A program made the translations under genes and the position numbers. From a candidate division WOR-3 bacterium (GTDB lineage Bacteria > Hydrothermota > Hydrothermia > Hydrothermales > JAJRUZ01), in NCBI GenBank assembly GCA_039803925.1, contig JBDRZL010000005.1, positions 9,969-73,968 of the forward strand: DNA of 64,000 bases, given 5' to 3'. A model generated the notes under the pieces. That model had not been told where the DNA came from, made no database searches, and saw only the letters and a program-made list of their open reading frames with translations. Shown piece after piece: positions 101-58,606 of this stretch; positions within the stretch are counted from its first letter, which is position 1, and each line of letters starts with the position of its first letter.

Positions 101-162
101 ATTTCCCTCCTTTTAAATAAAGGATTTGAACCTTAAACTGGACTAAATTAGTCCTCTTTTAA

Positions 163-576
163 TTATAAAATTTTTTTATATCTTTTTGCAAGTTTATAAA
201 AATTTTCTTTTTTTAATTTTTTCTCAACATATTTTCTTATCTCAACCCATACGGGATGTACTGAGCATATGTTTGAAAGATTGCAGTACTTTTTTTCTAC
301 GGCGCAGATGTTCATTGCAAGAGATTTTTCAAAAATTAATATAATATCAAGGAGAGAAATTTCCTCTGGTTTCTTTGTTAAAGAATAACCTCCCTTTATA
401 CCTCTTATTGATTTCAATATTCTATTTTTTTTAAGTTTCTGGATTATCTTTGAAAGAAATTCTTTTGGAACAAGTGTTTTTTGTGATATTTCCTTTACAC
501 TATAAATTTTTTTATGATTCTGACTCATATAAAGAATTGTTCTTATCGCATAATCCGTTTCCCTTTTTATTCTCAT
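163..576 (-). CDS. Rrf2 family transcriptional regulator (IscR/NsrR-like, three Cys)
   Basis: N-terminus TDYAIRTILYMS is typical of Rrf2. Three Cys near the C-terminus are spaced as in Fe-S-binding Rrf2 members. The 137-aa length is typical for Rrf2. Confidence 0.7.
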   Translation of the reverse strand: MRIKRETDYAIRTILYMSQNHKKIYSVKEISQKTLVPKEFLSKIIQKLKKNRILKSIRGIKGGYSLTKKPEEISLLDIILIFEKSLAMNICAVEKKYCNLSNICSVHPVWVEIRKYVEKKLKKENFYKLAKRYKKIL

Positions 577-17875: not shown

Positions 17876-19003
17876 ATGAGACCTAATGTAAGGAGACTTT
17901 TAATAGCTTTATCCCTGGCAGGGATAGCTGCACTTTTATTAATAAGTTATATTCAGGATGTAGAAAGGAAGACTCTAATGAAAGGTGCCCCTGAGAGAGT
18001 TCTTGTAGCAAAAAAAGATATAAGCGCAAGAACAATTATCTCAGAAGATCTTGTAGAATACAGAGAAATTCCTAAACCTTTTATAGAACCACTTGCAGTT
18101 TCAGATATAGGAGAGATTATAGGTATGGTTGCAATAACTGATATAAGAAAGGGGGAACAGATAACAAAAAATTTGCTTTTACCATTACAGACATGGACTG
18201 TTCTTTCTTCCTTTGTTCCCGAAGGTTTTAGAGCTATAACAATTCATGTGGATGAGGTTTCAGGAGTCGGAGGGTTAATACTTCCTGGAGATGAAGTAGA
18301 TGTAGTAGCAACCTTTTCTCTTGAAGATTTAAGGAGATATATTCCAGAACAGGAGCTTGAAAGATATTTAAGAAGTCCTCAACTTTACAGGGTAAGAGGA
18401 CCTTATTCTTCCTTTGCAACAATTACATATAAGGCAGTTAGAGTACTTGCAGTTGGAAGATCACTCCTTGCTTTGCCACCAACAGTTACAGAGAAAAAGA
18501 CAGGTTTTATGGGAATGCCAGAAACACAAGAATTAGAGAGGGTAACTTCAGTTACACTTGCGGTCCCAAAGGAAATTGTAAAAGAGCTTTCTCTTCTTGA
18601 GAAAATTTCAGATATAAGACTTGTTTTAAGGTCTGTGAGAGAGATAAAACTACCAGGTGAGGATACAATAATAGAAAAACCCTTAACTGTATTTGATATC
18701 TTAGAAAAATATAATCCAAAACCAAAACCTAAAAAAGTTGCGAAGGCAGCACCAACTCCAGAGGTTTCTCCTTATTCTTATATAAATATATATAAGAGAA
18801 CAGATTTGGAACAAGTAAAACTAAGAGGAAGTGAAGTAGTTGAACAAAAACCTTGGGGAGAAGGAAGAAGAAAAGGATTTGAACCTGGTCAAATTATGGA
18901 AACTTTTATGGGTTCTTATATGAAGGGAATAGAAAATGTTTTAAAGCAGGCAGGTGTTAAAGTCCCTGCTAATTTACAGGTTCCCTGCGATACCTGTTTT
19001 TGA
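17876..19003 (+). CDS. cpaB: Flp pilus assembly protein CpaB/RcpC (SAF domain)
   Basis: N-terminal TM followed by SAF-domain signature VLVAKKDISARTIISEDLVEYREIPK. Flp-pilus-assembly C-terminal domain. Confidence 0.7.
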   Translation: MRPNVRRLLIALSLAGIAALLLISYIQDVERKTLMKGAPERVLVAKKDISARTIISEDLVEYREIPKPFIEPLAVSDIGEIIGMVAITDIRKGEQITKNLLLPLQTWTVLSSFVPEGFRAITIHVDEVSGVGGLILPGDEVDVVATFSLEDLRRYIPEQELERYLRSPQLYRVRGPYSSFATITYKAVRVLAVGRSLLALPPTVTEKKTGFMGMPETQELERVTSVTLAVPKEIVKELSLLEKISDIRLVLRSVREIKLPGEDTIIEKPLTVFDILEKYNPKPKPKKVAKAAPTPEVSPYSYINIYKRTDLEQVKLRGSEVVEQKPWGEGRRKGFEPGQIMETFMGSYMKGIENVLKQAGVKVPANLQVPCDTCF

Positions 19004-23395: not shown

Positions 23396-24154
23396 ATGAA
23401 GGGTAATAAGATAAAATTAAATAAGAGGAAAGGAACATTTCTGGTAGAACTTGCGATTATACTTCCTATTTTTGTTTTGCTTTTATCCTGGATTTTTATG
23501 TTAGGAATGATATTGCATAGGAAGCAGGTAGTAACTCTTGCAGCAAGAGCAGGAGCTCAGTATGCTGTTTATCCTGATCCTGTATATGGTGAGCGTATGG
23601 CAAAAATGGGGGTATGGATGGCTCTCTCTCAGGGTAAAAGAGATGAGGTTGAAAAGAGGGTTAAAGATGTTTTAAAAAGGAATGGTTTAAATCCAGATAA
23701 GGCAAAAATAAATATTGATTGGTTCCCAGTTCCTTTTGTTCCTCCTTTTAAAGAAGGAAGTGTTCAAAATCCTGGTCAAAACGGAAGAGCAACAGTTCAT
23801 GCTCTTTACACAGACATGTTAGGTGGAAACAACTGTAGCACAAGATGCCATTCAGGACTTGTCAGACAGGAACTTAAGAGAGAGTTTGATGATGATTCAA
23901 GGTATAGATACACAGAATACAGAATTCCATGTGATATATGGGTTGTTAAGGTAAAGGTGGAGTACCCACTTGGAGAATCAATACTCAATCTTTTAAATCC
24001 TATATTCAAATCAGTTGGATTTAAAGGTGATTTAAAACAAGGAAAAGTTGTTGCAAGTTGTGCATTTCCTGCTCCTATGCCTTTTGTCCATGTTGTTTTA
24101 AAAACACCACCCTTATATAAAGCATTATTTGACATTTCAACATACTTTAAGTAG
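23396..24154 (+). CDS. TadE-like pseudopilin
   Basis: KGTFLVELAIILPIFVLLLSWIF TadE motif. Four Cys in the soluble domain. Confidence 0.6.
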   Translation: MKGNKIKLNKRKGTFLVELAIILPIFVLLLSWIFMLGMILHRKQVVTLAARAGAQYAVYPDPVYGERMAKMGVWMALSQGKRDEVEKRVKDVLKRNGLNPDKAKINIDWFPVPFVPPFKEGSVQNPGQNGRATVHALYTDMLGGNNCSTRCHSGLVRQELKREFDDDSRYRYTEYRIPCDIWVVKVKVEYPLGESILNLLNPIFKSVGFKGDLKQGKVVASCAFPAPMPFVHVVLKTPPLYKALFDISTYFK

Positions 24155-24157
24155 AAT

Positions 24158-24664
24158 ATGAATATGATGAAAAAATTAATTCTAATTTTTTTAATAATGA
24201 TGTTAAACTGTAAGTTTAATAATCCTTTTTATCCAAAAGCTGAAATTGTTGTATCAAGTAATCTTCAGACTATAACTCTGAGTTATGAAATATCGCCAGG
24301 ACAAATAAGGTTAACATATCCAAAATTGAAATTATTTTTCAGAGAGATCTATGGTGGAACTTACGGAATAATTGACTCTGCAAGAGTTGATTACTATTAC
24401 CCAGGTTCAGATCCAATTAGAGATTCTATAGTTGAAACACTTCCCACTTACAGAAAAGGTATTTTACTTTATGTTCCACCTGACAATGAAGTTACAACTG
24501 AGTTTGATTTAGTTACAGATGATGTAGAAAATTTATTTGCCCCTAACAAAGGTAATTTTGAAGGTCCTCTCAATGCTATTATGACATTTTATGGAAAAGA
24601 TGGAAATGAACATAATTTTAAACTTTTTTTAACTTTTACTTTACAAAGAGTTATACCTGATTAA
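24158..24664 (+). CDS. Lipoprotein, Tad locus-associated, unknown function
   Basis: Signal peptide with lipobox MLNCK. 168 aa. Confidence 0.5.
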   Translation: MNMMKKLILIFLIMMLNCKFNNPFYPKAEIVVSSNLQTITLSYEISPGQIRLTYPKLKLFFREIYGGTYGIIDSARVDYYYPGSDPIRDSIVETLPTYRKGILLYVPPDNEVTTEFDLVTDDVENLFAPNKGNFEGPLNAIMTFYGKDGNEHNFKLFLTFTLQRVIPD

Positions 24665-24702
24665 ATGGGTTCAAATCCCAAAAAAACATAGGAGGTTTTA
24701 AG

Positions 24703-24873
24703 ATGAAGTTTTTAAGGTGTGAGAGAGGAGCGACAGCAGTGGAGTATGCGATGATAATAGGGCTTATAGCCCTATTTGCATTTGCTGCCTATAAGGCTCT
24801 TGGAAAGCAGGTTCAGAGGGTGATCCACGAAATGTGGAATAAGATGACAGAAGCCTCTGCTGGGCCTGAGTAA
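24703..24873 (+). CDS. flp: Flp/Fap family pilin (56 aa), copy 1 of duplicated pair
   Basis: RBS GGAGG. MKFLRCERGATAVEYAMIIGLIALFAFAAYKALGKQ... The upstream region and the gene together (24661-24873) are about 98% identical to 25101-25313. Confidence 0.75.
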   Translation: MKFLRCERGATAVEYAMIIGLIALFAFAAYKALGKQVQRVIHEMWNKMTEASAGPE

Positions 24874-24916
24874 TTTTATAAAATTTATGGGGTTCAAATC
24901 CCCCCTGCCCTTTAAG

Positions 24917-25093
24917 ATGATTATGCTAAAAAATATTCTGATAGATGAAAGGGCGGGGACGAGTGTGGAATATGGATTTCTTCTCGGAATTTCTGGTCTC
25001 TCTGCTTTTTATGCTTATGTTGCTAAAAAAGTAGAAGATTTAATAAATGAATTTACAACAAAGTTTTTTTATATATATGCTGGACCTCCATAA
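24917..25093 (+). CDS. flp: Flp/Fap family pilin (58 aa), divergent
   Basis: MIMLKNILIDERAGTSVEYGFLLGISGLSAF. No clear Shine-Dalgarno. Preceded by the GGTTCAAATCC motif. Confidence 0.55.
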   Translation: MIMLKNILIDERAGTSVEYGFLLGISGLSAFYAYVAKKVEDLINEFTTKFFYIYAGPP

Positions 25094-25142
25094 TAGATAT
25101 ATTTTAGGGTTCAAATCCCAAAAAAACATAGGAGGTTTTAAG

Positions 25143-25313
25143 ATGAAGTTTTTAAGGTGTGAGAGAGGAGCGACAGCAGTGGAGTATGCGATGATAATAG
25201 GGCTTATAGCCCTATTTGCATTTGCTGCCTATAAGGCTCTTGGAAAGCAGGTTCAGAGGGTGATCCACGAAATGTGGAATAAGATGACAGAAGCCTCTGC
25301 TGGACCTGAATGA
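25143..25313 (+). CDS. flp: Flp/Fap family pilin (56 aa), copy 2 of duplicated pair
   Basis: Identical to the 24703 gene except for the last codons. The ORF-track N-terminal extension from 25047 is an artifact. Confidence 0.75.
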   Translation: MKFLRCERGATAVEYAMIIGLIALFAFAAYKALGKQVQRVIHEMWNKMTEASAGPE

Positions 25314-25477
25314 TGAAGTTGTTAATAAGGGAAGAAAAAGGTGCATCTGCAGTTGAATATGCGATGCTTATAGGACTTATTTCTCTTTATGCTTTTGCAG
25401 CTTATAGAGCACTTTCAAGGGTGACTTATGCGGTAATAGAGCATATGTGGAATGAATTAACAAAAGCAGGGGGGTAA
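25310..25477 (+). CDS. flp: Flp/Fap family pilin (55 aa)
   Basis: MMKLLIREEKGASAVEYAMLIGLISLYAFAAYRAL. ATGA overlap with the previous pilin. Confidence 0.65.
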   Translation: MMKLLIREEKGASAVEYAMLIGLISLYAFAAYRALSRVTYAVIEHMWNELTKAGG

Positions 25478-25482
25478 TAACT

Positions 25483-25656
25483 ATGAAGAAATTTTTTAAA
25501 AATGAGAAAGGTGCTACTGCTGTTGAATATGCAATGATTATAGGGTTGATAGCATTATTTGCTTTTGCTGCTTATAAGGCACTTGGAAAAGAGGTTCACA
25601 GGATAATTGTATGGATGAAGTTTAAATTTATGACTATCCATGCTGGTCCTGAATGA
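25483..25656 (+). CDS. flp: Flp/Fap family pilin (57 aa)
   Basis: MKKFFKNEKGATAVEYAMIIGLIALFAFAAYKALGKE. Confidence 0.7.
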   Translation: MKKFFKNEKGATAVEYAMIIGLIALFAFAAYKALGKEVHRIIVWMKFKFMTIHAGPE

Positions 25657-26198
25657 TTTATGATATTATTAAGTTCCAAATTGTTGGACTTGTTGTGATA
25701 ATTTCAGTATATACTGATTTAAAATACGGTAAGATTTTTAATAAATTGACATTCCCTTTCTTTTTTACAGGATTTCTTTATAACTTTATGTTTAAAGGAT
25801 TTTCTGGTTTAGTTTCTTCCTTTATAGGTTTTTTGGTATCTTTTATTCCCTTTTTTATATTCTTTCAGCTGGGTGGGGTTGGTGGTGGTGATGTGAAACT
25901 TCTTGCAGGTATAGGTTCCTGGGTTGGTTATCCTCAGGTTCTTTGGATTATTTTTATGACTTCTATTTCAGGTCTTTTTATATCTATCTTGGTGAGTCTT
26001 TTTAAGGGTAAAATTGAATTTGTTTTAAAGGGTGCTTTTAGGGAAGGAAAAGAAAGTGTTAGAAATTTTATCTTTTCTCTATTTACTAAAAATCCAGAAT
26101 TTTTAGATAAAAATAGAGAATTTAAACTTTATGTTCCCTATTCTTTAGCCATAGCATCTGGGACTTTTTTAGGTTTAATAATTAATTTTTCACTATGA
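25653..26198 (+). CDS. tadV: Prepilin peptidase CpaA/TadV (A24 family)
   Basis: Multi-TM protein with the conserved second catalytic Asp in GGGDVKLLAGIG. ATGA overlap with the last flp gene. Confidence 0.75.
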   Translation: MIYDIIKFQIVGLVVIISVYTDLKYGKIFNKLTFPFFFTGFLYNFMFKGFSGLVSSFIGFLVSFIPFFIFFQLGGVGGGDVKLLAGIGSWVGYPQVLWIIFMTSISGLFISILVSLFKGKIEFVLKGAFREGKESVRNFIFSLFTKNPEFLDKNREFKLYVPYSLAIASGTFLGLIINFSL

Positions 26199-26284
26199 GA
26201 GTTCAAATCTCCCTAACCCGCATATATAAAAAAGAAATTAAAAAAGCGGGTTTAAAAGAGATTTTTATAATGGAGGTTTGAAGT

Positions 26285-29260
26285 ATGTATTTATTCTTTC
26301 TTATATCTTTTATCTCTTTAAATGGAGATTTTAACAGGGTTTATATTCCTTCAAAAGAACTTTTAAAACCTTGTGCTAAGTATGCCCCCTCTTATGCAAC
26401 TGAAATTTTAAATTCTGAGTTTGGAGAAAGTGCTTTCGTGTTATTTGGTAATTTTGGGTTTCCAAGACTTATTTCAAATTTTGAGCTCTCTGTTCCAGGG
26501 AAAAATGGACTGGAAAAAGCATATAACTTCTTAAGTTTAAAAGGGGAAGTATTAGGAATAGATTATAAGTATCTTTCCTTAATAAAGAGCATAGAAGATG
26601 AGTTAGGGTATACTCATGTAATTTTTGAGGAAGTTATAAATGGGATAAGGATTGAAAATTCTTTTGTAGGAGTTCATATAAATAAGAGAGGTAATGTTTA
26701 TTATGTCTCTTCTGATTACTTTCCTTATGATGGGACTCCTCTTAAAACTAATTCCAGAATAACAGAAAGAGAAGCTTTAAGTATTATTTATTCTGACCTT
26801 AGCTTAAAGGTTTTTCCAGAAGAGTATAAGAGCGAGCTTGTTTATTATCCTTATGAAAATTCCCTTATTCTTGTTTATAAAATAAGGTTTGTTTCAGAAT
26901 ATCCACTCGGTGATTTTGTTTATTACATTGATGCAATAAATGGTTCAATTGTTGAAAGGAGAAATGAATTAAAATCTGTTTATGGCTATGTATATGGATG
27001 GTGTTTCCCAAATACTGGTGCTGATGGACTTCAGAAGTATCCGATGGCAAACCAGTATGTTTATATTGGTTCTTCAACAGCCACAACAAATTCAAGTGGA
27101 TACTATTCAAGTTCAACTTCTGGAAACATAACAGCTTATCTTGAAGGTCCCTATGTTAAAGTTTTTAACGATGATAATCCACCTGGAAGAGCAGTTTTTA
27201 CTTCTTCTGGAGGTTCGGTAACATATACTGTTCAAAACGTATCTTACACATGGGATAATACTACCACTTCAACTGGTTTAACAGGTGATGATCAGACAAA
27301 GCAGTTTACTCTTCCCTTTTCTTTCCCCTTCTATGGAAAGAATTATTCATCAGTTTATATTTGCACAAATGGATTTTTAAGTTTTACTTCTAATTCAAAC
27401 AAGTATACACCTGACCCTATTCCCAATACCAATGCTCCAAATGCTCTTATAGCTGTTTTCTGGAGAGACCTTAATCCTGCTGCAGGTGGTGGTTCAATAA
27501 CCTATTATTCTGGTTCAGATAAGTTTGTTGTTACCTGGGATAACATTAAAAATTACAGTAATTCAAACAGACAGAGTTTTCAGGTGGTTTTGTATCCTAA
27601 TGGTAATATAGAATTTAGATATAAGTCAATAACCAATGACTATACAACTACAAGGGGTGTAGAAAATGAAAACGGAACAGCTGGTGTTACAGTTTCAACA
27701 CCTTCAAATAATACTGCATATAGATTAGTTCCGCAACAGGGTGGGGGAGGAAGTGAAGTTTCATGGGAGTGGAAGTATCCTTCTGACGAATCAACAGAGG
27801 GTAAACATACAACTGAGGTTATGGTGTTTTATCATGTGAACAAAATACATGATTTTTATAAAGGAACCTTCGGTTTTACAGGAATGGATTATCAGATTCA
27901 GGCAACTGTTTATTCTCACTCAGTGGACCAACATTATCAGGGAGCTAATGCTTATTATTATAATGGAACAATGCATTTTGGAAGGGGAAATTCAAGTTAT
28001 CAAATTCAGAATATGGCAAGGTCTGCTGATGTTATATACCATGAATACACGCATGGAGTTGTAGATAAGATTTATGCAAATGCAGGTGGTTTACCATATA
28101 GTGGACAGTCAGGTGCTATGAATGAAGCATGGGCTGATTATTGGGCATGCACTCAATCAGGTGACCCTGTTATGGGAGAATGGGTTATGCCATCCCAGTA
28201 CCAGAGAAATTTGCAGAATAATTATAAGTATCCTGATGACTGGGTGGGGGAGGTTCATGATGATTCAAGAATTTATTCAGGTGCATTATGGGATTTCAGG
28301 ACATATACTGATAAAACAACTGCTGATAGAGTAACGTGGAGAGCTTATACCTACTATCCAAAAGATTTTCTTGCTGGTAGAAATGCAATGATTCAGGCTG
28401 ATAAGGATCTCTATGGAGGTTCTCATGAAAGTCAAATAATTCAAGCTTTTGCAAGACACGGGATAGGTGGTTCAAGTGCAAGGTATGATATGAGGCAGGC
28501 TTCTTATTCATGGGTTACAACTTCAACACCTACAGGAATAACAGGTGATGATCAAACAATCAAATTCACCCTTCCTTTCTCATTCACTTTCTTTGGTTCC
28601 TCTTATTCTTCAGTATATGTTTGCAGTAACGGATGGCTTTCCTTCACCTCAAATTCTACATCCTATACACCTCAGAATATGCCCAATTCCACAGCTCCAA
28701 ATGCAGTTATTGCTCCTTACTGGAGAGACCTCTATCCACCTGATACAACTCAGGGAGCAAAGATAACCTATGCTTCCAATTCATCATATTTTGCTGTAAC
28801 CTGGTATAAAATTAAGAATTATTCTAATGCTAACAAACAAACCTTTCAGGCTATACTTTACAAAAATGGAACAATAAGGTTTAATTATCAGACTGTTACT
28901 GATGAATATACAACAGCTGTTGGTATTGAGGATGCAAATGGAGTTAATGCTTATCTTTATGCATATGGAACAGGAAGTGTCCTTCCAAGGAGTAACTCAG
29001 CAATAGAATTTGTTCCTCAATCTCAGGTTAGTGTGTTTGCATCAGCTGGAGAGAAGGGAGATATTAAATTTATTGGTAACAGGGAAGTTTATGAACTTAT
29101 TGAAAGCCCCTATTCAAAATTTGATGTATATGATGTTTCAGGTAGAAAGTTAAGTGTTTCAGAATTCAAAAAGATTAAAAATAATGGTTCAGGAGTTTAC
29201 TTCCTTATTCCCTATAATTACAAAGAGAAAAACATAAATAAAGTTGTGATTGTGAAATGA
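26285..29260 (+). CDS. Secreted thermolysin-like (M4/M36-type gluzincin) metalloprotease with duplicated ~150-aa accessory domains and a T9SS C-terminal sorting domain
   Basis: Signal peptide. HEYTHGV (HExxH) plus downstream GAMNEAWADYWA Glu-zincin motif. An N-terminal propeptide-like region. Two internal repeats, TG(L/I)TGDDQT..FTLPFSF.F.G..YSSVY.C.NG.LSFTSNS..YTP...PN..APNA.IA..WRDL, at about aa 320-470 and 740-890. C-terminal tail YDVSGRKLS...KVVIVK. Confidence 0.7.
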   Translation: MYLFFLISFISLNGDFNRVYIPSKELLKPCAKYAPSYATEILNSEFGESAFVLFGNFGFPRLISNFELSVPGKNGLEKAYNFLSLKGEVLGIDYKYLSLIKSIEDELGYTHVIFEEVINGIRIENSFVGVHINKRGNVYYVSSDYFPYDGTPLKTNSRITEREALSIIYSDLSLKVFPEEYKSELVYYPYENSLILVYKIRFVSEYPLGDFVYYIDAINGSIVERRNELKSVYGYVYGWCFPNTGADGLQKYPMANQYVYIGSSTATTNSSGYYSSSTSGNITAYLEGPYVKVFNDDNPPGRAVFTSSGGSVTYTVQNVSYTWDNTTTSTGLTGDDQTKQFTLPFSFPFYGKNYSSVYICTNGFLSFTSNSNKYTPDPIPNTNAPNALIAVFWRDLNPAAGGGSITYYSGSDKFVVTWDNIKNYSNSNRQSFQVVLYPNGNIEFRYKSITNDYTTTRGVENENGTAGVTVSTPSNNTAYRLVPQQGGGGSEVSWEWKYPSDESTEGKHTTEVMVFYHVNKIHDFYKGTFGFTGMDYQIQATVYSHSVDQHYQGANAYYYNGTMHFGRGNSSYQIQNMARSADVIYHEYTHGVVDKIYANAGGLPYSGQSGAMNEAWADYWACTQSGDPVMGEWVMPSQYQRNLQNNYKYPDDWVGEVHDDSRIYSGALWDFRTYTDKTTADRVTWRAYTYYPKDFLAGRNAMIQADKDLYGGSHESQIIQAFARHGIGGSSARYDMRQASYSWVTTSTPTGITGDDQTIKFTLPFSFTFFGSSYSSVYVCSNGWLSFTSNSTSYTPQNMPNSTAPNAVIAPYWRDLYPPDTTQGAKITYASNSSYFAVTWYKIKNYSNANKQTFQAILYKNGTIRFNYQTVTDEYTTAVGIEDANGVNAYLYAYGTGSVLPRSNSAIEFVPQSQVSVFASAGEKGDIKFIGNREVYELIESPYSKFDVYDVSGRKLSVSEFKKIKNNGSGVYFLIPYNYKEKNINKVVIVK

Positions 29261-29328
29261 AAAAAATATATTATATTACTAATAAAAAGGGTTCAAATCC
29301 CTTTTAAATTTAAAAAGGAGGTTTAAAT

Positions 29329-29997
29329 ATGAGGAAAATTTTTGCAGGAGCAATGATGCTCCTCCTTGTGCTTTCAGGATGTAAAAAGACAGAAGAAATT
29401 ACAGTTACCAAGGAACCTGGGATAAGGTTTGCAAGTGCAAGTGAAATAGAGGAGAGAGGTGGTTATGCAATTAATCAGGCTGATTTTGAAAAAGTTATTA
29501 ATGCAATGAGGAATGATGAAAGATTTTTGGAAGATATGAAAGCTCTTTCAGGTGGTGGGCTTGAATTTCCAATTCCATGTGATAGATTAATAAGATATAT
29601 TGAAGAACTTGTGGGAGTTGATCTTTCTAATGCAAGATGCAAGGCAAGGGGAAAATTCATGTATAAACCATCCTTTGACCTCTGGATTGCAGGACAGCTT
29701 GCTTATGCAATAGATTTATATGGTTATCTTGGAGCAGCCGGTTACGCAGGTTTTTCCGGTTCAATTGCTGGTGCACAGGAACTTGGGCTTTTGACAATAG
29801 TATATATAAACAATCAGCTGGATACAGTAATGATGAACTATAATTATAATGACAACTCCCATGTGGCTTTTAATGCTGGATTTGTGGTCTGGACAAGTGA
29901 AACTGGAGGAGTTTCTGTTGATATAACAACTGATCATCAGTTTTCTAACGGTCAATACGACTGGAACCCAGTTTTCCACGCTGTCTATCAGTTTTAA
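29329..29997 (+). CDS. Lipoprotein, unknown function
   Basis: RBS AAGGAGG. Signal peptide with lipobox LSGCKK. Preceded by the GGTTCAAATCC motif. Confidence 0.55.
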   Translation: MRKIFAGAMMLLLVLSGCKKTEEITVTKEPGIRFASASEIEERGGYAINQADFEKVINAMRNDERFLEDMKALSGGGLEFPIPCDRLIRYIEELVGVDLSNARCKARGKFMYKPSFDLWIAGQLAYAIDLYGYLGAAGYAGFSGSIAGAQELGLLTIVYINNQLDTVMMNYNYNDNSHVAFNAGFVVWTSETGGVSVDITTDHQFSNGQYDWNPVFHAVYQF

Positions 29998-30023
29998 GAG
30001 TAAGGCTTAAATTTTTTTATTTA

Positions 30024-30057
30024 TAAGGGGGGGTTAAATTCCCCCTTTTTATTTTTT
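30024..30057 (+). terminator. Rho-independent terminator
   Basis: GGGGGGG-TTAAATT-CCCCC stem-loop followed by a T-run (TTTTTATTTTTT), immediately after the 29997 stop. Confidence 0.7.
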
Positions 30058-31020
30058 ATGTATTTCTTTTTAATTACTATTGTTCTTTTAAAAGAAAAGG
30101 GTATTGTTAAAAATTGGTTTATCCATCAAAAGAAAGATAGTTTTATTATTTACTATACTATTGATAAAAATTTTGATAAATATGCTGAAGAGCTTAAAGT
30201 TTTACGATTTGATATTAAAAACATCAAGGTTAATTCAAAAAGAATATACCGAGATAAAAATGGAATAGGTGATATAAAAATAAAAAATGATACTTTGTTT
30301 TTTTCTCTTTATGATTATTTAAAGGATAAAAAAACAAAAAAATTAAAAAAAATTTTTGTTTATAAAAATGGGAAAATAAAAAAAATTTTTGAAGAAAAAA
30401 GAAAAAATTATTTTTTTTATAAATTTGATTTTTATGAAGACAAAGAAAATAAAGGTATATTAATAGATCAAAGAGGAAAAATAATTTTTTTAAGTAAAGA
30501 TAAAGAAAAAGAAATATCCACAGGGATTTTTCCGGTTTTTTTTAATTCTTATATTTTCTTTATACACGGGAAAGAAGAGGGAAAAGTTAATTCTCTATTC
30601 AAAATAAAAGAAGGTGAAGATAAAAAAGTTGTTTTTGATAGAGAAACAGTTCTTGAAATGGATAAAGAAAATAATTTTCTATTTTTTCTAACAGATAGTG
30701 ATAATGACCTATTGCCTGAAAAGATTTATATTATTGACTCTTTATTAAATTTAAATCTTCTTTTTGAATCAGAAAATCACATAATTATTAAACCATCCTT
30801 CTTTTTAAAAAAAGATACACTTTTTGCCTTATTAAGCTTATCTGAAGAGTTTATACCTGAAAAAATTCTTTTATTGAAAATTCATAAAAATAAAGAAATC
30901 AGTCAAAAAGAAATAATTAAAAGAAAAGGAATTGAAGGGAAATGGTTAAATTATCCCTATATTATCCTTCTTGAAAAGAAAGAGAATTATTCCCTTTTTG
31001 AACTTATTTCACTAAAATAA
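30058..31020 (+). CDS. Lys-rich hypothetical protein
   Basis: 320-aa ORF, low complexity (K/I/F-rich), no RBS at the predicted start. The start is uncertain. Confidence 0.3.
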   Translation: MYFFLITIVLLKEKGIVKNWFIHQKKDSFIIYYTIDKNFDKYAEELKVLRFDIKNIKVNSKRIYRDKNGIGDIKIKNDTLFFSLYDYLKDKKTKKLKKIFVYKNGKIKKIFEEKRKNYFFYKFDFYEDKENKGILIDQRGKIIFLSKDKEKEISTGIFPVFFNSYIFFIHGKEEGKVNSLFKIKEGEDKKVVFDRETVLEMDKENNFLFFLTDSDNDLLPEKIYIIDSLLNLNLLFESENHIIIKPSFFLKKDTLFALLSLSEEFIPEKILLLKIHKNKEISQKEIIKRKGIEGKWLNYPYIILLEKKENYSLFELISLK

Positions 31021-32803
31021 CCTTATGGGTCTTATTTTTATCCTTAATAAAAATAACTTTATTAATCTTCTGCGGTTCTGATTTTCTGCCACTAATATCA
31101 AAAAATTCTGGATTTTTGAGAAATCTTCTTATATCCTTAATGTCTTTTATAAAGGTTGGAACAGCAAGGCTTATGTTAGTTACAGTTTTTTCATTAATAT
31201 TTTGAACCCATTTTAATCCAGTTGATATCTTATAGAGTTTGTACCCCCCAATATTTACATAGGCATTTATGTATTCACCAATCTGTCTCCTTTCAACACA
31301 TATTCCTCTTACTTCGTCATCAAAGGTTCTATCTCCAAGAATATTTCCAGATTTTGTAAAGAGATTTATTTTATTTGAGCCTAATCCAGCCGAAATAAAA
31401 ATCGTATCATTTACTGCCTCAAGTGCACCTGCTATAAAATAAAGAGGTTGTGTTAAGGTAATTGAATCAATCTTTGGACTTATTTCATTTGATAAATCAA
31501 GTTTATAAATTCTATATTTTGAAGGGAAAATAGCCCTGTGAACAAAACATAAATTTGAACCCTGAGCATTTGAAAGAGCAAAAATTCTTAATCCGACCCC
31601 TTTTCCTACGAGATTAAAACTATCAATTAAGTTAAAATTAGGTGTGTAATGAACTATATAACACCAATTTATATTGGTTCCACTTATTCCTAACTGACTT
31701 GTATAAAAAGTTCCTGTTTCAATATCATAATATATTCCAAAGGGATTGTCAAAAGTTGAACCTTGAGAAAGATCTATTAATTTATACTTTGAAATTATAT
31801 TTCCATTTTCATTAATTGCAAAAACAGTATCTCTTGGAGAATTAACAATGTAAATACTATTTTCATTAGTTTTAAAGGTAATATCTTGAAAAGCGGAGTC
31901 ATTTCTCGGCAAAGGAATTTCCTTTATAATTGCTCCAAAAAAGGGCTTTGTTGTTGAATAAGCTTTAACAGTATCATTTGATGGGTCAGGATCCCCTGAA
32001 AGTTGTGTCCAAGCTAAAATACGATAAGTTTTTTGAGAAGAACCTGTAAAGTTATTTAATTGAACTGTATCCTTTTTTAAAGGTCCTATACTCACAAAAG
32101 AACTATCCCTATAAACCCTTGCGTTAGTTGAACTATCTCTTATTTCAGATTTAACATAAAAAATTTGCGGGGTATTTGAAAAATTTTCATATTCTATTAT
32201 AACAGGTGTTGGTGTATTTGGCTCAAAATATTCAAGTGGTGATAAGATTTTTTTAACTCCTACATCTCCTGAAAGTTTTGCTTCCACCTTTATAAAATCA
32301 ATCATAAAAAACCCTGTATCCTGAGCTGGTTTTGAATAAACAAAACCTATCTTAATACTGTCATAACTAACATAGGCCTGAAGATTTATAGAATCAATTT
32401 GATTTTCAAAAACAGGGTTTCCATTACCACCGTATGTTTTTAATACAGTCCAGGATCCCCATGTTCCACCTGAAAAAGGTCTTATTATTATTTCACCCTT
32501 TGAGATTATTATTGTATCCTTCATAAAAGAAACATTATAGTAAAGTTTGAGACCCTGTAAGTTGGTAGGTAAATCAATTGAAGGTGTTATTAGACTATCC
32601 TGATATATAACATGGTTTGTATCACATACTACATAATATAAGCCTTCCTGTGGTGGTTCAACAGGAAAATACTCCCCGTATTGTGCTATCCTCCAGGAAT
32701 AAGTTAAATTACCCCCATTACCTATATGCCATTTAGGAGGTATTACTCCACCTTCAAATCCCTCACTCAATAAAGTTAAGGTTGTAAGTATAATACTTAA
32801 CAT
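31004..32803 (-). CDS. Secreted hypothetical protein with T9SS C-terminal sorting domain
   Basis: Signal peptide MLSIILTTLTLLS. C-terminal FFDISGRKSEP...KVILVK tail. GGTTCAAATCC motif about 30 nt upstream (reverse strand). Confidence 0.6.
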   Translation of the reverse strand: MLSIILTTLTLLSEGFEGGVIPPKWHIGNGGNLTYSWRIAQYGEYFPVEPPQEGLYYVVCDTNHVIYQDSLITPSIDLPTNLQGLKLYYNVSFMKDTIIISKGEIIIRPFSGGTWGSWTVLKTYGGNGNPVFENQIDSINLQAYVSYDSIKIGFVYSKPAQDTGFFMIDFIKVEAKLSGDVGVKKILSPLEYFEPNTPTPVIIEYENFSNTPQIFYVKSEIRDSSTNARVYRDSSFVSIGPLKKDTVQLNNFTGSSQKTYRILAWTQLSGDPDPSNDTVKAYSTTKPFFGAIIKEIPLPRNDSAFQDITFKTNENSIYIVNSPRDTVFAINENGNIISKYKLIDLSQGSTFDNPFGIYYDIETGTFYTSQLGISGTNINWCYIVHYTPNFNLIDSFNLVGKGVGLRIFALSNAQGSNLCFVHRAIFPSKYRIYKLDLSNEISPKIDSITLTQPLYFIAGALEAVNDTIFISAGLGSNKINLFTKSGNILGDRTFDDEVRGICVERRQIGEYINAYVNIGGYKLYKISTGLKWVQNINEKTVTNISLAVPTFIKDIKDIRRFLKNPEFFDISGRKSEPQKINKVIFIKDKNKTHKVILVK

Positions 32804-32837
32804 TTTTTCCCCCTTTATAATGAAAAGGATTTGAACC

Positions 32838-34799
32838 TCATTTAATCTTTATGAATTTATAAAGAGTTTTTCCTTTTTTTATTATATAAATTCCAGAATT
32901 TTTTATATCTATCTTCCTTCCAAGAAGGTTATAAGAATTTTTTTCTTTTTTTAAGAATTCAGGTAAATATAAAAGCCCAATTCTCTTTTCTTTTTCATTT
33001 TCTCTTGAAATAAAACTTACTTCTGATATGTATGTTATATGCGGGTTAACAATACTTATCCCAAGTGGACCAAGAGAAGTGTAAAGGAATCCGTTTAAAT
33101 AAAAAAGCCCCCTTGGCTCTCCAAAGAGGATTTTATATTCTGTTTCTGTAGGGTTATATGGGTCAGTTATTGAAATTTTTCTTAAACCGTAAACTTGCCC
33201 ATCTGCAACTATCAGGGTATCCTGTCTTATAAATTCAACATCAAATCCAAAACCAGGTGTTGAAAAATTGCTGTAAAATTGGGGTGCTGTTATATTTGTA
33301 ATATCCCATAAAGAAAGTCCACCGGTCCATCCTTCTGCAACAGCAAGTTTGCTTCCATTTATCTTTAAAGATTGTGCAAAACCATAGGAAGGAAGATTTG
33401 TTATCAAGATAATATTGTTTGTATCTGAAATATCAAAAATTTTGGTTCCTGAATTTCCATCTGCTAATAAAAGGTAATTAGGAGGATAAAATAAAACATC
33501 TTCTCCACTCCCTGATGTAGGATAATTGATAATTTCCCGTGGCTTTGTAGGGTTAGACACATTTAAAATAGAAAAACCATATCCTGGACCGTTCGCTGTG
33601 TAGAGATAAGGGAAATTTAGTGAAAGAGATTTCGCATATCCATTTACTGCTACATAACCCATCTCAACCGGTGAATATATATTTTTAATTTTAAAAACCT
33701 TAACACCCTCAAAACCATCTGCAACATAAAGTAAAGTATCTCCATATACTTCAATATCAAAAGATGTTCCTGATGTTTCAATTGAATTCATATAAAAGGG
33801 TTTTTGCTTATTCCTTACATTTAAAAAGAAAACACCACCTAATCCCGATGCCAAAACAAGGATTGAATCGGAAATTACTTTGGTTCTGTATGTAATCTGA
33901 GGAGTTGAAAAAGTATCAAGGGTAAAAAGGGTTGGATAAGAAAGGGTAATAAGACCGAGATCAAGGTCAGCTGCATAAATATAAGATCCTGATTTTGTTA
34001 GAGAAACACAGTTAGAAAAGAAGTAGCTATGGGCCAATTCATTTCCATTTGTAAAATTGTAAGTGGCAACTCCAGAGAAAGAAAGGGCAACTATTAAAGT
34101 ATTTCCAAAAAGCTCAAAATTTTGTCCAAATCCAGTTGTTTGAAATCCGTATAAATATTGAGGTGTTGAAGGGTTTTGAATTCTAAAGATTTTAAAAGAA
34201 TCACCTGTTAAAACAAAGAGAGAATCGTTTCTTTTATAAATATCCTGGAAAAATAGAGATGTTTTTAATTTGCTATAAACTGAAGGTGTCACAGGATTTT
34301 GTAAGTTTAATATATAAATAGTATCACCTGAAACAGCAAAACCTAAATTGGAAAATATTTCTATTCTGTTTATATAGGAGGGTAATGAATAAGTAAATAG
34401 AGTTTCAGGTGAATTTGGTGTATTCAGATTAAAAATTTTTATTTTTCCAGAAGATACACCATAACCATAAGGGAAAAGGTTTTCGTAAGACCTTATTTCA
34501 TTACTTGAATAGTTTCCTATAAGTTGGGGATTATTTAGATTTTGAATATTAAAAATTCTGATTCCAAACTCACCTGAAAGAAATACTGTATCACCTATGA
34601 AGTCAATATCAAAAATTGTGCCCTCAAGACTTATTTCTTTTTTAAATTGAGGTATACCTGTCCCAAATCTGTATGTTAAAACAGTTCCACCTGAAGCAAG
34701 ATATAAAAGTGTGTCTTTTTTTAAAATAAACCTTGAATTGCCAGCTGTCCAGTAAGAAATTGGAGTTATATTAAATAGAAAAAAAATTAAAATTTGCAT
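32838..34799 (-). CDS. Secreted LVIVD-repeat beta-propeller protein with T9SS-like C-terminal domain
   Basis: Signal peptide. At least 12 LVIVD-type blades (GIRIFNIQNLNNPQLIG, GKIKIFNLNTPNSPE, GDTIYILNLQNPVTPS, GVKVFKIKNIYSPVEMG, GFSILNVSNPTKPREI, GLSLWDITNITAPQF). C-terminal LLGRKIDIKNSGIYIIKKGKTLYKFIKIK. Confidence 0.6.
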   Translation of the reverse strand: MQILIFFLFNITPISYWTAGNSRFILKKDTLLYLASGGTVLTYRFGTGIPQFKKEISLEGTIFDIDFIGDTVFLSGEFGIRIFNIQNLNNPQLIGNYSSNEIRSYENLFPYGYGVSSGKIKIFNLNTPNSPETLFTYSLPSYINRIEIFSNLGFAVSGDTIYILNLQNPVTPSVYSKLKTSLFFQDIYKRNDSLFVLTGDSFKIFRIQNPSTPQYLYGFQTTGFGQNFELFGNTLIVALSFSGVATYNFTNGNELAHSYFFSNCVSLTKSGSYIYAADLDLGLITLSYPTLFTLDTFSTPQITYRTKVISDSILVLASGLGGVFFLNVRNKQKPFYMNSIETSGTSFDIEVYGDTLLYVADGFEGVKVFKIKNIYSPVEMGYVAVNGYAKSLSLNFPYLYTANGPGYGFSILNVSNPTKPREIINYPTSGSGEDVLFYPPNYLLLADGNSGTKIFDISDTNNIILITNLPSYGFAQSLKINGSKLAVAEGWTGGLSLWDITNITAPQFYSNFSTPGFGFDVEFIRQDTLIVADGQVYGLRKISITDPYNPTETEYKILFGEPRGLFYLNGFLYTSLGPLGISIVNPHITYISEVSFISRENEKEKRIGLLYLPEFLKKEKNSYNLLGRKIDIKNSGIYIIKKGKTLYKFIKIK

Positions 34800-40878: not shown

Positions 40879-40919
40879 TTTTTTTAATTTTTAAGTTATA
40901 ATAAATATTTGATTTTGAA

Positions 40920-46540: not shown

Positions 46541-46590
46541 CTTATTGAGCAAGAAAAATTCAATATTGTATAGTATTCTGCAGATATTTG
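46541..46590 (+). promoter_or_regulatory. Conserved promoter-like element, copy B: TTGAGC(46545-46550)-N18-TATAGT(46569-46574)-ATTCTGCA
   Basis: Aligns with 7538-7580 and 47169-47215. About 45 nt upstream of the 46624 start. Confidence 0.45.
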
Positions 46591-53850: not shown

Positions 53851-53905
53851 ATTAATTGGTTTTTTTAGAAAGGAATAGAACCTTTAAAAATTTAATTATA
53901 TTGAT

Positions 53906-56249: not shown

Positions 56250-58570
56250 AGGTAACATATAACTGGTTAAAAGAATATGTTGATTTAAATATTTCCCCAA
56301 AGGAGCTTTTAGAAATTTTTGGAAAACTCGGAATGCCTGTTGAAGAATTCACTGATTTTAGAAAAGGAAAAGAAAATTTAATGGTAGCAGTAATTGAAGA
56401 TATTGAAAGGCATAAAAAGAAAGATAATCTTTTTGTTTTAAATCTAAGAACAAAAAAGGGAAACTTTAAGACTATTTCAGGAGCTCCTTTCCTTGAAAAA
56501 GGTAAAAAAGTTATCTTTGCTCCAAAAGGAACTATCCTGAAAGATTACATTGTTGAAGAAAAAGTTATAAGAGGAGAAGAATCTCTTGGCACAATTGTTT
56601 CAGAGGAGGAACTATCCCTTGCTGATAAAAGTGAAACAGTTATTTTTCTTGATGAAAAGATAAGTTTAGAAGATGACCCTTTAGAGATTCTTGGATTAAA
56701 TGATTACATTTATGAGCTTGAAATTTACCCTAATAGACCTGATTTACTTTCTGTAATTGGAATTGCAAGGGATATTTCTGCGTATTTGAATCTTGAATTA
56801 AAAATACCTGAAATTAAGAAGATTAAAGAAGAGGAAATAGATTTTAAAATTGAAATTGAAGAAAATGCTCCATGTGATAGATATGTGGGTTTAATTATTA
56901 AGGATATAAAAGTAAAGGAAAGTTCTTCAAAAATTAAATACAGGTTAAATTTATGTGGAATAAGAGCAATAAATTCAGTTGTTGATGCTACAAACTATGT
57001 GATGCTTGAAACAGGTCATCCCTTACATGCCTTTGATTTAAATAAGATTAGAGAAAAAATTATAGTAAGAAATGCTAAAAAGGGAGAGAAAATTTTATGT
57101 CTTGATTCAAAATTGAGGGAACTGGATGATGAGGTTATGGTTATTGCTGATAGAGAAAAGCCCCTTGCAATTGCAGGTGTAATAGGTGGTGAAGAATCAG
57201 GAGTAAGGGAAGATACAAGAGATATTTTATGTGAGAGTGCCTTTTTTGAAAAGATAAATATAAGAAAAACAGGTAAAAAACTTAACATTCAGACAGAATC
57301 CTCTTACAGGTTTGAAAGGGGTGCTGATTTTGAAATGGTTTATTACGCAGCTTGCAGATTAAGAGATTTAATTCTTGAAACATCAGGTGGTATTCCCTTT
57401 AAACCTATTGATGTTATAAAAAATGAATATAAAAAGAAAAAAGTTTTTTTAAAAGAAGAAAAATTGAAAAGAATTCTTGGGAACGAGTTTTCTCTTGAAA
57501 AATCAAAAGAAATTCTTGAAAGGCTCTATATAAAATCTAATTTAAATAATGGTATTTTAGAGGCAGAGATACCAAGTTTCAGAAGGGATATTGAAATTGA
57601 AGAAGATTTGATAGAAGAGGTTGCAAGAATTTATGGTTATGAGAATTTTAAATCAGAGGCAGAAGAAGTTTCTTCTTTTATAGGAAAAAGAGATGTTACA
57701 GAGGATAGGATAAGGGAGCATTTTAAGGGTGAGGGATTTCTTGAATGTGTCAATATTTCTTTAATTGAAGAAAAGGAGGCAAATTTATTTTCTGAAAAAT
57801 ATTTAAAAATAAAGAATCCCCTTTCTGAAAGATTTTCTGTTTTAAGATCATCACTTTTGCCTTCTCTTCTTTTTTCCTTAAAAAACAATTTAAGAAAAAA
57901 TGAGAAAATTCAAAAACTATTTGAAATAGGTAAGGTTTTTTATGAAGATTATAGTGAAGAAAAGAAACTTGGTTTACTTTTAGCAGATGTTAAGGAGGAA
58001 AATTGGTTAAAAAGTAAAGAAGTTGAACCCTATTTTGAATTAAAGGGAATTTTAGAAAGTTTTTTTGAGAATTTTGAGGACAGTTTATATTTTGTTGAGG
58101 AGAATTTTTCCTTTTTTGAGTATGGGGCAAAAATTATAATAGATGATAAAGAAATAGGTTTTATAGGAGAGGTAAAAGAGGAAATTTTAAAATATTATGA
58201 TTTAAAAGTTCAGAGTGTTTATTCTGAAATTTCCCTTGATAAAATAAAATTAAAAGATACTTTAGTTTTTAAACCACTTTTCTTATATCCTTCTCTTTCA
58301 AGGGATCTTTCTTTTGTTGGTTCAGAGGAAATAAGAGCTCAGGAATTAATTAAGGCTTTAAAGGAGTTAAAAAGAGAAACTTTAATTGAAAAGTTTGTTC
58401 TTTTTGATGTTTATAAAGGGAAACCCTTAAAAGAAGGAGAGAAAAATTTTACATTCAGAGTATTTTTTAGAAGTATGGATAAAACTCTTTCTGAAAGGGA
58501 TGTGGACAAAGAGGTAGAAAAAATAGTAAAATATATAGAAGAAAAAACAGGATATAGGTTAAGGGGATAG
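56246..58570 (+). CDS. pheT: Phenylalanine--tRNA ligase beta subunit
   Basis: N-terminal tRNA-binding domain, B3/B4 and B5 domains, and a C-terminal FDX-like domain. ATGA-coupled to pheS. Confidence 0.85.
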   Translation: MKVTYNWLKEYVDLNISPKELLEIFGKLGMPVEEFTDFRKGKENLMVAVIEDIERHKKKDNLFVLNLRTKKGNFKTISGAPFLEKGKKVIFAPKGTILKDYIVEEKVIRGEESLGTIVSEEELSLADKSETVIFLDEKISLEDDPLEILGLNDYIYELEIYPNRPDLLSVIGIARDISAYLNLELKIPEIKKIKEEEIDFKIEIEENAPCDRYVGLIIKDIKVKESSSKIKYRLNLCGIRAINSVVDATNYVMLETGHPLHAFDLNKIREKIIVRNAKKGEKILCLDSKLRELDDEVMVIADREKPLAIAGVIGGEESGVREDTRDILCESAFFEKINIRKTGKKLNIQTESSYRFERGADFEMVYYAACRLRDLILETSGGIPFKPIDVIKNEYKKKKVFLKEEKLKRILGNEFSLEKSKEILERLYIKSNLNNGILEAEIPSFRRDIEIEEDLIEEVARIYGYENFKSEAEEVSSFIGKRDVTEDRIREHFKGEGFLECVNISLIEEKEANLFSEKYLKIKNPLSERFSVLRSSLLPSLLFSLKNNLRKNEKIQKLFEIGKVFYEDYSEEKKLGLLLADVKEENWLKSKEVEPYFELKGILESFFENFEDSLYFVEENFSFFEYGAKIIIDDKEIGFIGEVKEEILKYYDLKVQSVYSEISLDKIKLKDTLVFKPLFLYPSLSRDLSFVGSEEIRAQELIKALKELKRETLIEKFVLFDVYKGKPLKEGEKNFTFRVFFRSMDKTLSERDVDKEVEKIVKYIEEKTGYRLRG

Positions 58571-58606
58571 GGTTCTATTCCCCGGTTAGGTTTAAGGAGG
58601 AACTGG

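Follow-up and report, generated by a model that had tools for sequence, protein, structure and literature searches.

A 13-nucleotide hairpin resembling the tRNA T-arm in the leaders of operon-internal genes of a WOR-3 bacterium: probably an undescribed mRNA control element

The stretch of candidate division WOR-3 DNA analyzed in this work (64,000 nucleotides of contig JBDRZL010000005.1, positions 9,969 to 73,968; hereafter the window) carries, shortly upstream of nine of its genes, copies of a small predicted hairpin (stand-alone sequence GGGUUCAAAUCCC) capped by a loop of the kind found in the T-arm of tRNAs. This is probably an undescribed mRNA control element and not a promoter for surface proteins. 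The interpretation that we favor, with moderate confidence, is that it mimics the T-arm at the RNA level, in leaders located inside operons, where it would control the processing, stability or translation of the downstream cistron.

The 11-mer at the heart of the element, GGTTCAAATCC, has seven exact copies in the 64-kilobase (kb) window (GC 30.8%), against the 0.06 expected from dinucleotide-preserving shuffles, none of which (0/100) reached seven and the richest of which held a single copy. The copies are found at 24668, 24891, 25108 and 29290 on the plus strand, and at 32827-32837, 122-132 and 18875-18885 on the minus strand. Six of the seven lie in non-coding DNA, which makes up about 3-8% of the window (binomial P about 1e-8), and all six of these spacer copies point the same way as the gene downstream. 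The variant AGAGTTCAAATCTCC at 26198-26212 is real as well, and the variant GGTTCTATTCC occurs twice, at 53872-53882 on the minus strand and 58571-58581 on the plus strand, with the anatomy of the exact copies, which gives nine leader sites in total (six exact, gene-oriented spacer copies and three variants). Two of them, at 24668 and 25108, are not independent, as both open a duplication of 208 nucleotides (nt) in which 24667-24874 and 25107-25314 are 99% identical. The first-pass annotation of this DNA had reported a recurrent motif at six sites, and five exact copies together with the variant at 26198 are indeed there, to which we add two further exact copies that it had missed; its sites were right, with positions set 1-2 nt early and the preceding G counted in. 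It had also described an A/T stretch and then GGAGG after the motif, which is true at most sites and fails at 24891 and 53882, where there is no Shine-Dalgarno sequence. When the window is searched with a covariance model, the top nine matches are the nine leader sites, the training sequences being included by construction. The nine sites are as follows.

121..133, minus strand: site F, with the hairpin A-GG-TTCAAAT-CC-T lying 21 nt ahead of the start codon (ATG at position 100) of a gene for a winged-helix protein of 56 amino acids (aa); the gene is cut by the left end of the window.
24667..24679, plus strand: site A, GGG-TTCAAAT-CCC, 3 nt past the stop of a 168-aa gene and 24 nt before the ATG of flp1 (24703).
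24889..24903, plus strand: site B, GGGG-TTCAAAT-CCCC, 21 nt before the likely ATG (24923) of the second flp-like gene; without a Shine-Dalgarno sequence.
25107..25119, plus strand: site A', a copy of site A at the start of the 208-nt repeat that holds hairpin, leader and flp gene.
26199..26211, plus strand: site C, GAG-TTCAAAT-CTC, with an A-U pair replacing a G-C pair; overlaps the stop of the prepilin peptidase gene, 74 nt before the ATG (26285) of an M4/M36 protease gene.
29285..29305, plus strand: site D, AAAAGGG-TTCAAAT-CCCTTTT, with a stem of 7 base pairs (bp), 28 nt ahead of the ATG of a gene for a lipoprotein-like product of 222 aa.
32826..32838, minus strand: site E, A-GG-TTCAAAT-CC-T, adjoining the TGA of a 653-aa gene, 23 nt before the ATG of a gene for a 599-aa choice-of-anchor-J protein.
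53869..53885, minus strand: site G, AAAGG-TTCTATT-CCTTT, 21 nt before the ATG of an acyl-CoA dehydrogenase gene; without a Shine-Dalgarno sequence.
58570..58582, plus strand: site H, GGG-TTCTATT-CCC, which begins within the pheT stop codon (TAG); the ATG of a ZapB-like gene (62 aa) comes 25 nt later.

Comparison with other loci (designated here by L numbers) shows that these sites are kept in related genomes. A search with the protease gene gave three loci in WOR-3 / Candidatus Hydrothermales metagenome-assembled genomes, with 92, 80 and 65% protein identity; a metagenome scan added 4 loci, and PheT and S8 peptidase homologues led to others. At sites A-H the element is present in the orthologous spacer of every clade relative examined, whereas the flanking intergenic bases have diverged. 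Site A has orthologous hairpins in L001, L002, L003 (two), L009 and L011, the flp-1 leader sequences being GGGTTCAAATCCC, GGGTCCAAATCCC, GGGGTCCAAATCCCC, GGGGGTTCGATTCCC and GGGTTCAATTCCC; those of site B are GGGTTCAAACCCC in L002 and GGGTTCAACTCCC in L003. The leaders of the protease gene (site C) carry GAGTTCAAATCTC, GAGAGTTCAGCTCTC (L001), GAGTTCAATTCTC (L002), GGGGTTCAATTCC (L003) and GGGTCCGAATCCC, and GGGTCC(G/A)AATCCC is found in L009 and L011. Site F corresponds to GGTTCGATTCC in L026 and to GGGTTCAACTCCC in L029, and its loops across the clade are TTCAAAT, TTCGATT and TTCAACT, those of site D being TTCAAAT, TTCAATT and TTCGAGT. Site E is represented in L002, L003, L010 and L011, adjoining a stop codon in every one of them, with the loops TTCAAAT, TTCAATC and TTCAAGT across the clade. 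The orthologues of site G have the loops TTCAAAT (L018), TTCGATT (L020) and TTCTATT (L022), and those of site H are present in the same three loci, the loops across the clade being TTCTATT, TTCAATC and TTCAATT. About 25 kb of new, non-orthologous sequence from the clade revealed just one further site, which has no orthologue among the sites of the window and shows the same layout:

13697-13723 of L028 (a further part of the L003 genome), minus strand: TAG-GTTCAAATCC, overlapping the stop of a HEPN gene (the site follows a HEPN/nucleotidyltransferase pair), 22 nt before the ATG of an enoyl-CoA hydratase gene.

The distribution of the element seems to end with the clade, a group of WOR-3 (Candidatus Hydrothermales) bacteria from hot environments. 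Neither 33 kb of a sister lineage (45% PheT identity), where only a real tRNA came up, nor five loci from other phyla contain it, and in the outgroup sequence as a whole (95 kb) the covariance model gives a single match below E=0.1, which is a genuine tRNA-Pro T-arm (one other match falls below E=1, with 16.5 bits and E=0.18). Such conservation of position and sequence amid diverged flanks shows that the element is under selection. It does not behave as a repeat of the repetitive extragenic palindrome or miniature inverted-repeat transposable element type, which we reject, as conservation does not extend past the 13 nt and the position is stable at orthologous sites. Chance similarity, or functionless remnants of decaying tRNA genes or of a small mobile repeat, would at first sight suit a sequence that is identical to common tRNA T-arms and that has one clearly fortuitous copy, at 18875; this explanation is, however, effectively refuted by the enrichment, the orientation bias, the retention at orthologous positions where the flanks have diverged and the proteins are 65-92% identical, the compensatory changes and the constant distance to the ATG. 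The fortuitous copy is the sole exact one in a coding region and is not conserved:

18875..18885, minus strand: an exact 11-mer that is not a member of the element, antisense within rcpC/cpaB and scoring only 15.4 bits with the covariance model; it is missing from the L002 and L003 orthologues and therefore taken as a chance copy.

The sites also vary in the manner of a structured RNA. In an alignment of 37 sites, mostly orthologues of one another, the three innermost pairs of the stem are formed in all 37: the first is always G-C, the second is G-C in 34 and A-U in 3, and the third is G-C in 25, A-U in 10 and G-U in 2. Pairs 4 and 5 are formed in 26/37 and 23/37, respectively, so that stems range from 3 to 8 bp with no conserved extension. 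The covariation score of 0.428 compares with 0.235 in column shuffles (none of 500 reaches it) and is higher than that of every slid register. The third pair is A-U in the groups of sites E, F and G and G-C in the others, a pattern that alone, with some eight or nine independent sites, has a chance probability of roughly 0.02, and compensatory switches are seen within orthologous sites too, from A-U to G-C at pair 2 of site C and from A-U (window) to G-C (L029) at pair 3 of site F. Left to fold alignments of the leaders with no prior, RNAalifold returns the hairpin as the sole conserved structure (six orthologous leaders in the case of site D).

Numbered as in tRNA, G53, U54, C56, C61 and a pyrimidine at position 60 are present in 37/37 sequences and A58 in 36/37; a purine occupies position 57 in 34/37 (the other three have U), position 55 is U in 33/37 (C in 4) and position 59 is free. 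The 7-nt loop is closed by G53-C61 in 37/37, with U54 and A58, the reverse-Hoogsteen partners, inside it, and the whole can be summarized as a loop U-U/C-C-N-A-N-Y on a G-C-closed stem of three or more pairs. The variation at the 37 sites thus follows the rules of the T-arm, which upholds the likeness to this arm remarked on in the first-pass annotation, and the resemblance is, on this evidence, a pattern of constraint and not merely one sequence. A real T-arm likewise has a 7-nt loop, U-U-C-R-A-N-Y, closed by G53-C61, with positions 53, 54, 56, 58 and 61 invariant and positions 57 (in part), 59 and 60 free; the element differs from it in occurring by itself in mRNA leaders, where the acceptor, D and anticodon arms are lacking, in having stems that are often of 3-4 bp and not 5, and in allowing C55 and U57. 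It is not part of any tRNA, as had been stated before: ARAGORN predicts no tRNA anywhere in the window, nor at the sites of 15 loci, and Rfam gives no match at gathering threshold and none at E<=5 in the region 24.0-33.5 kb, for which reason a tRNA or tRNA fragment is rejected. What the sequences predict, then, is a small hairpin with a T-loop of its own.

Several simpler identities of such a hairpin were considered and rejected. A leader peptide or other coding sequence is contradicted by stem positions that covary and by loop positions 57 and 59, whose freedom is not codon-like, and only one site (the open reading frame, ORF, at 24887) could be read as coding at all. A switch that sequesters the Shine-Dalgarno sequence is suggested by the ViennaRNA minimum-free-energy structures of several sites, where CC(C)UUU pairs with AAAGGAGG; duplex energies set against 300 composition-matched shuffles, however, are no better than those of the shuffles (mean z -0.44 across 8 site groups), and the anti-Shine-Dalgarno complementarity is missing at site A, at site D of L002 and at the sites that have no Shine-Dalgarno sequence. 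Neither is the element an intrinsic terminator, for which a G+C-rich stem of at least 5 pairs before a U tract was required, as none of the nine sites is called as one and the only terminator in the cluster is the following, which is kept in L002 and L003 and whose superficially motif-like loop earns 17 bits from the covariance model:

30025..30052, plus strand: intrinsic terminator GGGGGGTTAAATTCCCCC followed by a T run, not a member of the element, closing the flp-protease-lipoprotein gene string.

The location of the hairpin indicates that it belongs to the gene downstream. The start codon comes 18-33 nt after the motif at nearly all sites (mode about 24), while the distance from the upstream stop to the motif goes from 0 to about 70 nt; the spacing to the start codon is exceptional in the protease leader of two genomes, into which another conserved hairpin is inserted, and in one orthologue of flp-2. 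The stop codon adjoins or overlaps the stem at sites E, H and C and at the L028 site. Site G is kept although what precedes it differs, being a patatin-like gene in the window and in L018, an unrelated gene for a 684-aa LTD protein in L020 and a divergent spacer with no upstream gene in L022, and site F is kept within a divergent spacer in L029. The flp duplication unit, for its part, runs from the first G of the hairpin to the stop codon. A 3'-end element of the upstream gene is therefore rejected, since the hairpin stays when the upstream neighbor changes or is missing (L020, L022, L029) and the flp duplication starts at the hairpin.

In most cases the element seems to be internal to an operon. 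Eight of the nine window sites lie between co-oriented genes, in a cassette consisting of the upstream stop, the hairpin, about 24 nt that usually include GGAGG, and the ATG. About half of the co-oriented spacers of at least 30 nt in the window carry the hairpin, the rest mostly having a terminator or canonical promoters, which are often of the leaderless kind. The gene string of about 6 kb that begins with the 168-aa gene at 24158 and closes with the terminator (30025-30052) has five hairpins, one per spaced junction. At site F, transcription of the hairpin can be argued for more directly, as a canonical promoter is found some 28-36 nt upstream of it in three genomes (TTGCAA, TTGAAA or TTGACA, 17-19 nt, TATAAT). 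It reads TTGAAA-17-TATAAT in L026 and TTGACA..TATAAT in the divergent spacer of L029; in the window it is:

162..191, minus strand: promoter-like site of the sigma-70 type, TTGCAA-N18-TATAAT, about 28 nt upstream of hairpin F and overlapping the stop codon of the Rrf2 gene.

With such a promoter upstream, hairpin F would be inside the 5' untranslated region (UTR) and hence transcribed. This bears on the proposal, made when the motif was first noticed, of a shared promoter or 5'-UTR element, of which the second half stands, as we find a gene-oriented 5'-leader element under selection, and the first half, with its alternative sigma factor, is not supported, given the lack of -10/-35 boxes, the covariation of the stem and the promoter upstream of F. 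No second conserved block and no -10/-35 (TANNNT) enrichment at a fixed offset is found upstream of the sites, where base composition is flat, there is no conserved -35, and the region has no more sigma-70-like matches than shuffled sequence does, so that a shared upstream promoter is rejected. A signal acting in DNA, be it the promoter element of an alternative sigma factor or the operator of a transcription factor, is in our opinion quite unlikely. Its fit to the orientation of the genes, to the position upstream of their starts and to the fairly constant spacing to the ATG is good, and transcription starting just downstream would give a plausible 5' UTR of 15-20 nt; but apart from the missing second block and boxes, covariation with G.U pairs is not expected of a double-stranded DNA site, the asymmetric 7-nt center is unlike dimeric operators, a conserved canonical promoter is already present upstream of site F, and three copies stand within 450 bp of a single gene string.

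A mixed possibility is that the hairpin forms in the non-template strand of the transcription bubble and recruits a paralogue of NusG, as ops does RfaH, or pauses RNA polymerase in the leaders of surface-structure operons. The RfaH ops / JUMPstart and the LoaP or UpxY leader elements are known precedents, ops working as a tiny hairpin, and, judging by the structures of RfaH with ops, a tiny stem is less of a problem inside the bubble. Like them, the element is short (11-13 nt, with a stem of 2-3 bp and a conserved loop), depends on orientation, lies in the transcribed leader and is associated with pilus and surface-protein operons, since 6/9 window sites are in the pilus / secreted-protein cluster. 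Unlike them, it has no sequence similarity to the known elements, is repeated within a gene string, where each small flp gene even has a copy in front of it, and also precedes genes for cytoplasmic enzymes of metabolism and for cell division, whereas ops-type signals are used about once per long operon; the T-loop-like variation that it allows would, moreover, be left without explanation. No NusG paralogue was seen among the annotated loci, where the only NusG is the canonical one of L018, the whole genomes not having been searched. We regard this mechanism as very unlikely. Both it and the DNA-level promoter or operator are less well supported than action at the RNA level, which is preferred mainly because the pattern of constraint matches the rules of the T-arm.

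The genes that carry the element are not confined to those for exported proteins. In the window they encode Flp pilins (Pfam Flp_Fap; three sites), the M4/M36 metalloprotease, the 222-aa protein with its lipoprotein-type N-terminus and the choice-of-anchor-J protein, and, in addition, the 56-aa winged-helix protein after the Rrf2 regulator, the acyl-CoA dehydrogenase and the ZapB-like protein after pheST. The six sites in the pilus / secreted-protein cluster are therefore a local concentration, and a surface-protein regulon, as initially imagined, does not agree with the products of sites F, G and H and of the L028 enoyl-CoA hydratase site, nor with the exported-protein genes of the window that have no element (S8 peptidase, secretin and the 653-aa protein). 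The labeling of some of these products as cargo of the type IX secretion system (T9SS) could not be confirmed either: no T9SS C-terminal domain (Por_Secre_tail) matches the proteins encoded at 26285-29260, 31004-32803 (minus strand) and 32838-34799 (minus strand) at E<=0.01, and the proteins so labeled match only choice-of-anchor J/B, LVIVD, NIDO and, along a short stretch, the T9SS-dependent M36 model. The 56-aa winged-helix protein (1-100 of the window, minus strand; 7821-7991 of L025) matches HTH_24, with faint Z-alpha and PF0610-like matches, and is encoded directly after the Rrf2-family regulator. Its gene is itself preceded by the hairpin, and it might conceivably be a binding factor of the element.

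Some leaders have structures of their own in addition to the T-arm-like hairpin. In the protease leader, a second conserved hairpin (26215-26251; AACCCGC, about 24 nt, GCGGGTT), also present in L001 with a changed loop, intervenes between site C and the gene, which accounts for the unusual spacing of 74 nt. In the flp-2 leader (24902-24977), the T-hairpin is immediately followed by CCCCTGCCCTTT, which can pair with AAAGGGCGGGG, some 55 nt further on, and so enclose the likely start codon at 24923, whilst in L003 (8760-8815) its counterpart CCCCTGCC pairs instead with GGCAGGGG, upstream of the hairpin; this pairing may be a regulatory structure specific to the gene. The flp genes themselves are five small flp-like genes in succession, followed by that of the prepilin peptidase, and the unit duplicated at 24667-24874/25107-25314, which is exactly hairpin, leader and flp gene, has a third copy, 63% identical, at 25450-25657.

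Two further observations concern the sequence at large. Good -10 boxes of the TATAAT type located only 5-11 nt before an ATG, with no Shine-Dalgarno sequence, are seen at 46590-46626, 51162-51200 (minus strand), 54808-54835 (minus strand), 40890-40922 and 24129-24166, which suggests that leaderless mRNAs, or mRNAs with very short leaders, are frequent in this organism alongside genes with a very strong GGAGG. The long ORF at 6538-7194 (plus strand) is antisense to ribosomal protein genes (the L24/L14/S17 region) and almost certainly spurious, showing that the AT-rich sequence inflates ORF calls here.

How could such a hairpin work? If it mimics the T-arm, as we propose, the stem-loop would act on the mRNA and not on the DNA, marking where an expression unit proper to the downstream cistron begins, and setting the output of this cistron independently of the genes upstream. 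The likeliest routes would be that it serves as a recognition or anchor point for endonucleolytic processing, that it protects the new 5' end, or both; a gene for RNase Y is present at 60364-61917. A trans-acting factor that recognizes the T-arm is probably involved, because the loop is conserved base for base and the stem is too short for stability alone. The modification enzymes of the T-loop are the natural candidates for such a factor, since T-arm stem-loops suffice as their substrates and the consensus equals the GUUCNANNC / GUUCRA motif. The sequences themselves show selection, the pairing of the stem, a T-loop-type pattern of conservation and the tie to the downstream gene; action at the RNA level, the T-arm-binding factor and the effect on processing, stability or translation are what we infer.

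This interpretation has weaknesses of its own. The 37 aligned sites come down to about nine independent ones, C55 (4/37) and U57 (3/37) depart from tRNA, site F of L026 has a T.T mismatch at pair 3, and site C of L001 has G at position 58. In nearest-neighbor folding, although this model does not capture the three-dimensional fold of the T-loop, the probability of the G53-C61 pair is below 0.1 at 5/8 window sites (C, E, F, G and H), both at 37 and at 60 C; the hairpin of 3-4 bp is thus often unfavored, and the organism is probably thermophilic. With folding so marginal, the hairpin needs stabilization, either by the tertiary structure of the T-loop or by a factor bound to it; alternatively, single-stranded DNA may be where it forms. 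The stems fall short of the 5 bp of a T-arm, which is also the minimum quoted for T-loop enzymes, and no candidate binding protein emerged from the analysis. All of these points count against a T-arm mimic acting in the mRNA.

The likeness to enzyme substrates could also be taken literally. In this case the hairpins would be true substrates of T-loop modification (by TruB at pseudouridine 55, TrmA/TrmFO at m5U54 or TrmI at m1A58), the mark itself, or the binding or chaperoning by the enzyme, would tune translation or stability, and the element would be the counterpart of the T-loop-like sites of eukaryotic mRNAs. Its consensus G-U-U-C-N-A-N-N-C does fit the GUUCNANNC / GUUCRA motif of the mRNA targets of TRUB1/PUS4 and TRMT6/61A (PMC6380271, PMC6076376, PMC11549392), U54 and C56 never vary and A58 is found in 36/37 sequences, and TruB, TrmA and TrmFO need nothing beyond the T-arm stem-loop (PMC7912444). 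Most of the 37 sequences match GUUCNANNC in a stem-loop (consensus of PMC6380271), the misfits being the four with C55 and the one with G58 (site C of L001). The C that replaces U55 in 4/37, however, is conserved between relatives, and pseudouridine 55 cannot then be the selected feature; the stems, often of 3-4 bp, compare poorly with the quoted 5 bp, and the enzymes were not located among the loci examined. We know of no regulatory role of such marks in bacteria, and consider this explanation unlikely. The eukaryotic sites share with the element the same consensus of sequence and structure in mRNA, but they are scattered, mostly unconserved and of doubtful function (PMC6380271, PMC6076376), whereas the WOR-3 element is fixed in leaders and conserved between species.

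It could be asked whether a trans-acting factor is needed at all. A mini-hairpin capped by a T-loop might be a passive structural module that insulates the ribosome-binding site from the sequence upstream or protects the 5' end left by RNase Y cleavage, its loop having been selected as an unusually stable small fold in an AT-rich thermophile. Its position, 10-24 nt ahead of the Shine-Dalgarno sequence, where it borders the ribosome-binding region on the 5' side, and inside operons of an organism that has an RNase Y gene, would be appropriate, and UUCG hairpins in the intercistronic regions of phage T4 and 5' stabilizer hairpins offer analogies. Yet the predicted stability is marginal, the strictness of U54, C56 and A58 across nine unrelated sites exceeds what stability would seem to need, and the limitation of the element to one clade, with its absence from the sister lineage, is not what such a module would lead one to expect; this, too, we hold to be an unlikely account. 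Known 5' stabilizer hairpins and guides of RNase Y-dependent operon maturation (the ompA and aprE leaders, B. subtilis cggR-gapA, S. aureus sae) resemble the element in being placed near the 5' end of an operon cistron, where they give neighbors a differential expression, and RNase Y is encoded in the window; they are gene-specific and share no loop, whereas here there is one loop consensus across nine unrelated genes.

Turning back to the mimicry of the T-arm in mRNA, punctuation by tRNAs is, with the 5' stabilizer or RNase Y-guide hairpins and the eukaryotic T-loop-like sites, one of three known systems that the element resembles most in its working. In mitochondria, tRNAs punctuate the transcripts, and the 't-elements' of plant mitochondria are tRNA-like structures that also serve as processing signals of RNase P/Z. 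These structures stand between the cistrons of polycistronic transcripts or at mRNA ends. The element resembles them in being a tRNA-like structure between cistrons (8/9 window sites), and differs in mimicking the T-arm only, with no acceptor-stem-like helix on the T stem, and in its bacterial host. It is tempting, if doubtful, to speculate that it is a bacterial 'tRNA punctuation' cut down to the T-arm, whose copies recruit RNase P/Z, TruB, TrmA/TrmFO, TrmI or a lineage-specific derivative of them to polycistronic mRNAs, cutting or marking the starts of selected cistrons, and which would couple pilin, secreted-enzyme and some metabolic gene expression to how tRNA maturation is proceeding. Searches of the literature for the 11-mer and for 'T-arm-like' elements in bacterial mRNAs returned tRNA-related uses only. 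The kind of element is therefore a known one (a cis-acting leader hairpin or tRNA-like mRNA element), while such an element in bacteria was not found described in the literature searched.

In conclusion, if the hairpin works as RNA, it would represent an undescribed class of bacterial cis-regulatory element, and one that its size of 13 nt and clear consensus make easy to test. The enzymes that recognize the T-arm might then have mRNA clients in bacteria, an idea so far mainly discussed for eukaryotic mRNAs. It would also provide a handle on how genes inside operons are uncoupled from their neighbors, as in the case of a highly expressed pilin encoded after its assembly genes. For the organism itself, it would mean that one tiny tRNA-mimicking module has been reused before unrelated operon genes in a poorly known, mostly uncultured thermophilic phylum, which does have a cultured thermophilic member with pili (PMC12285271).

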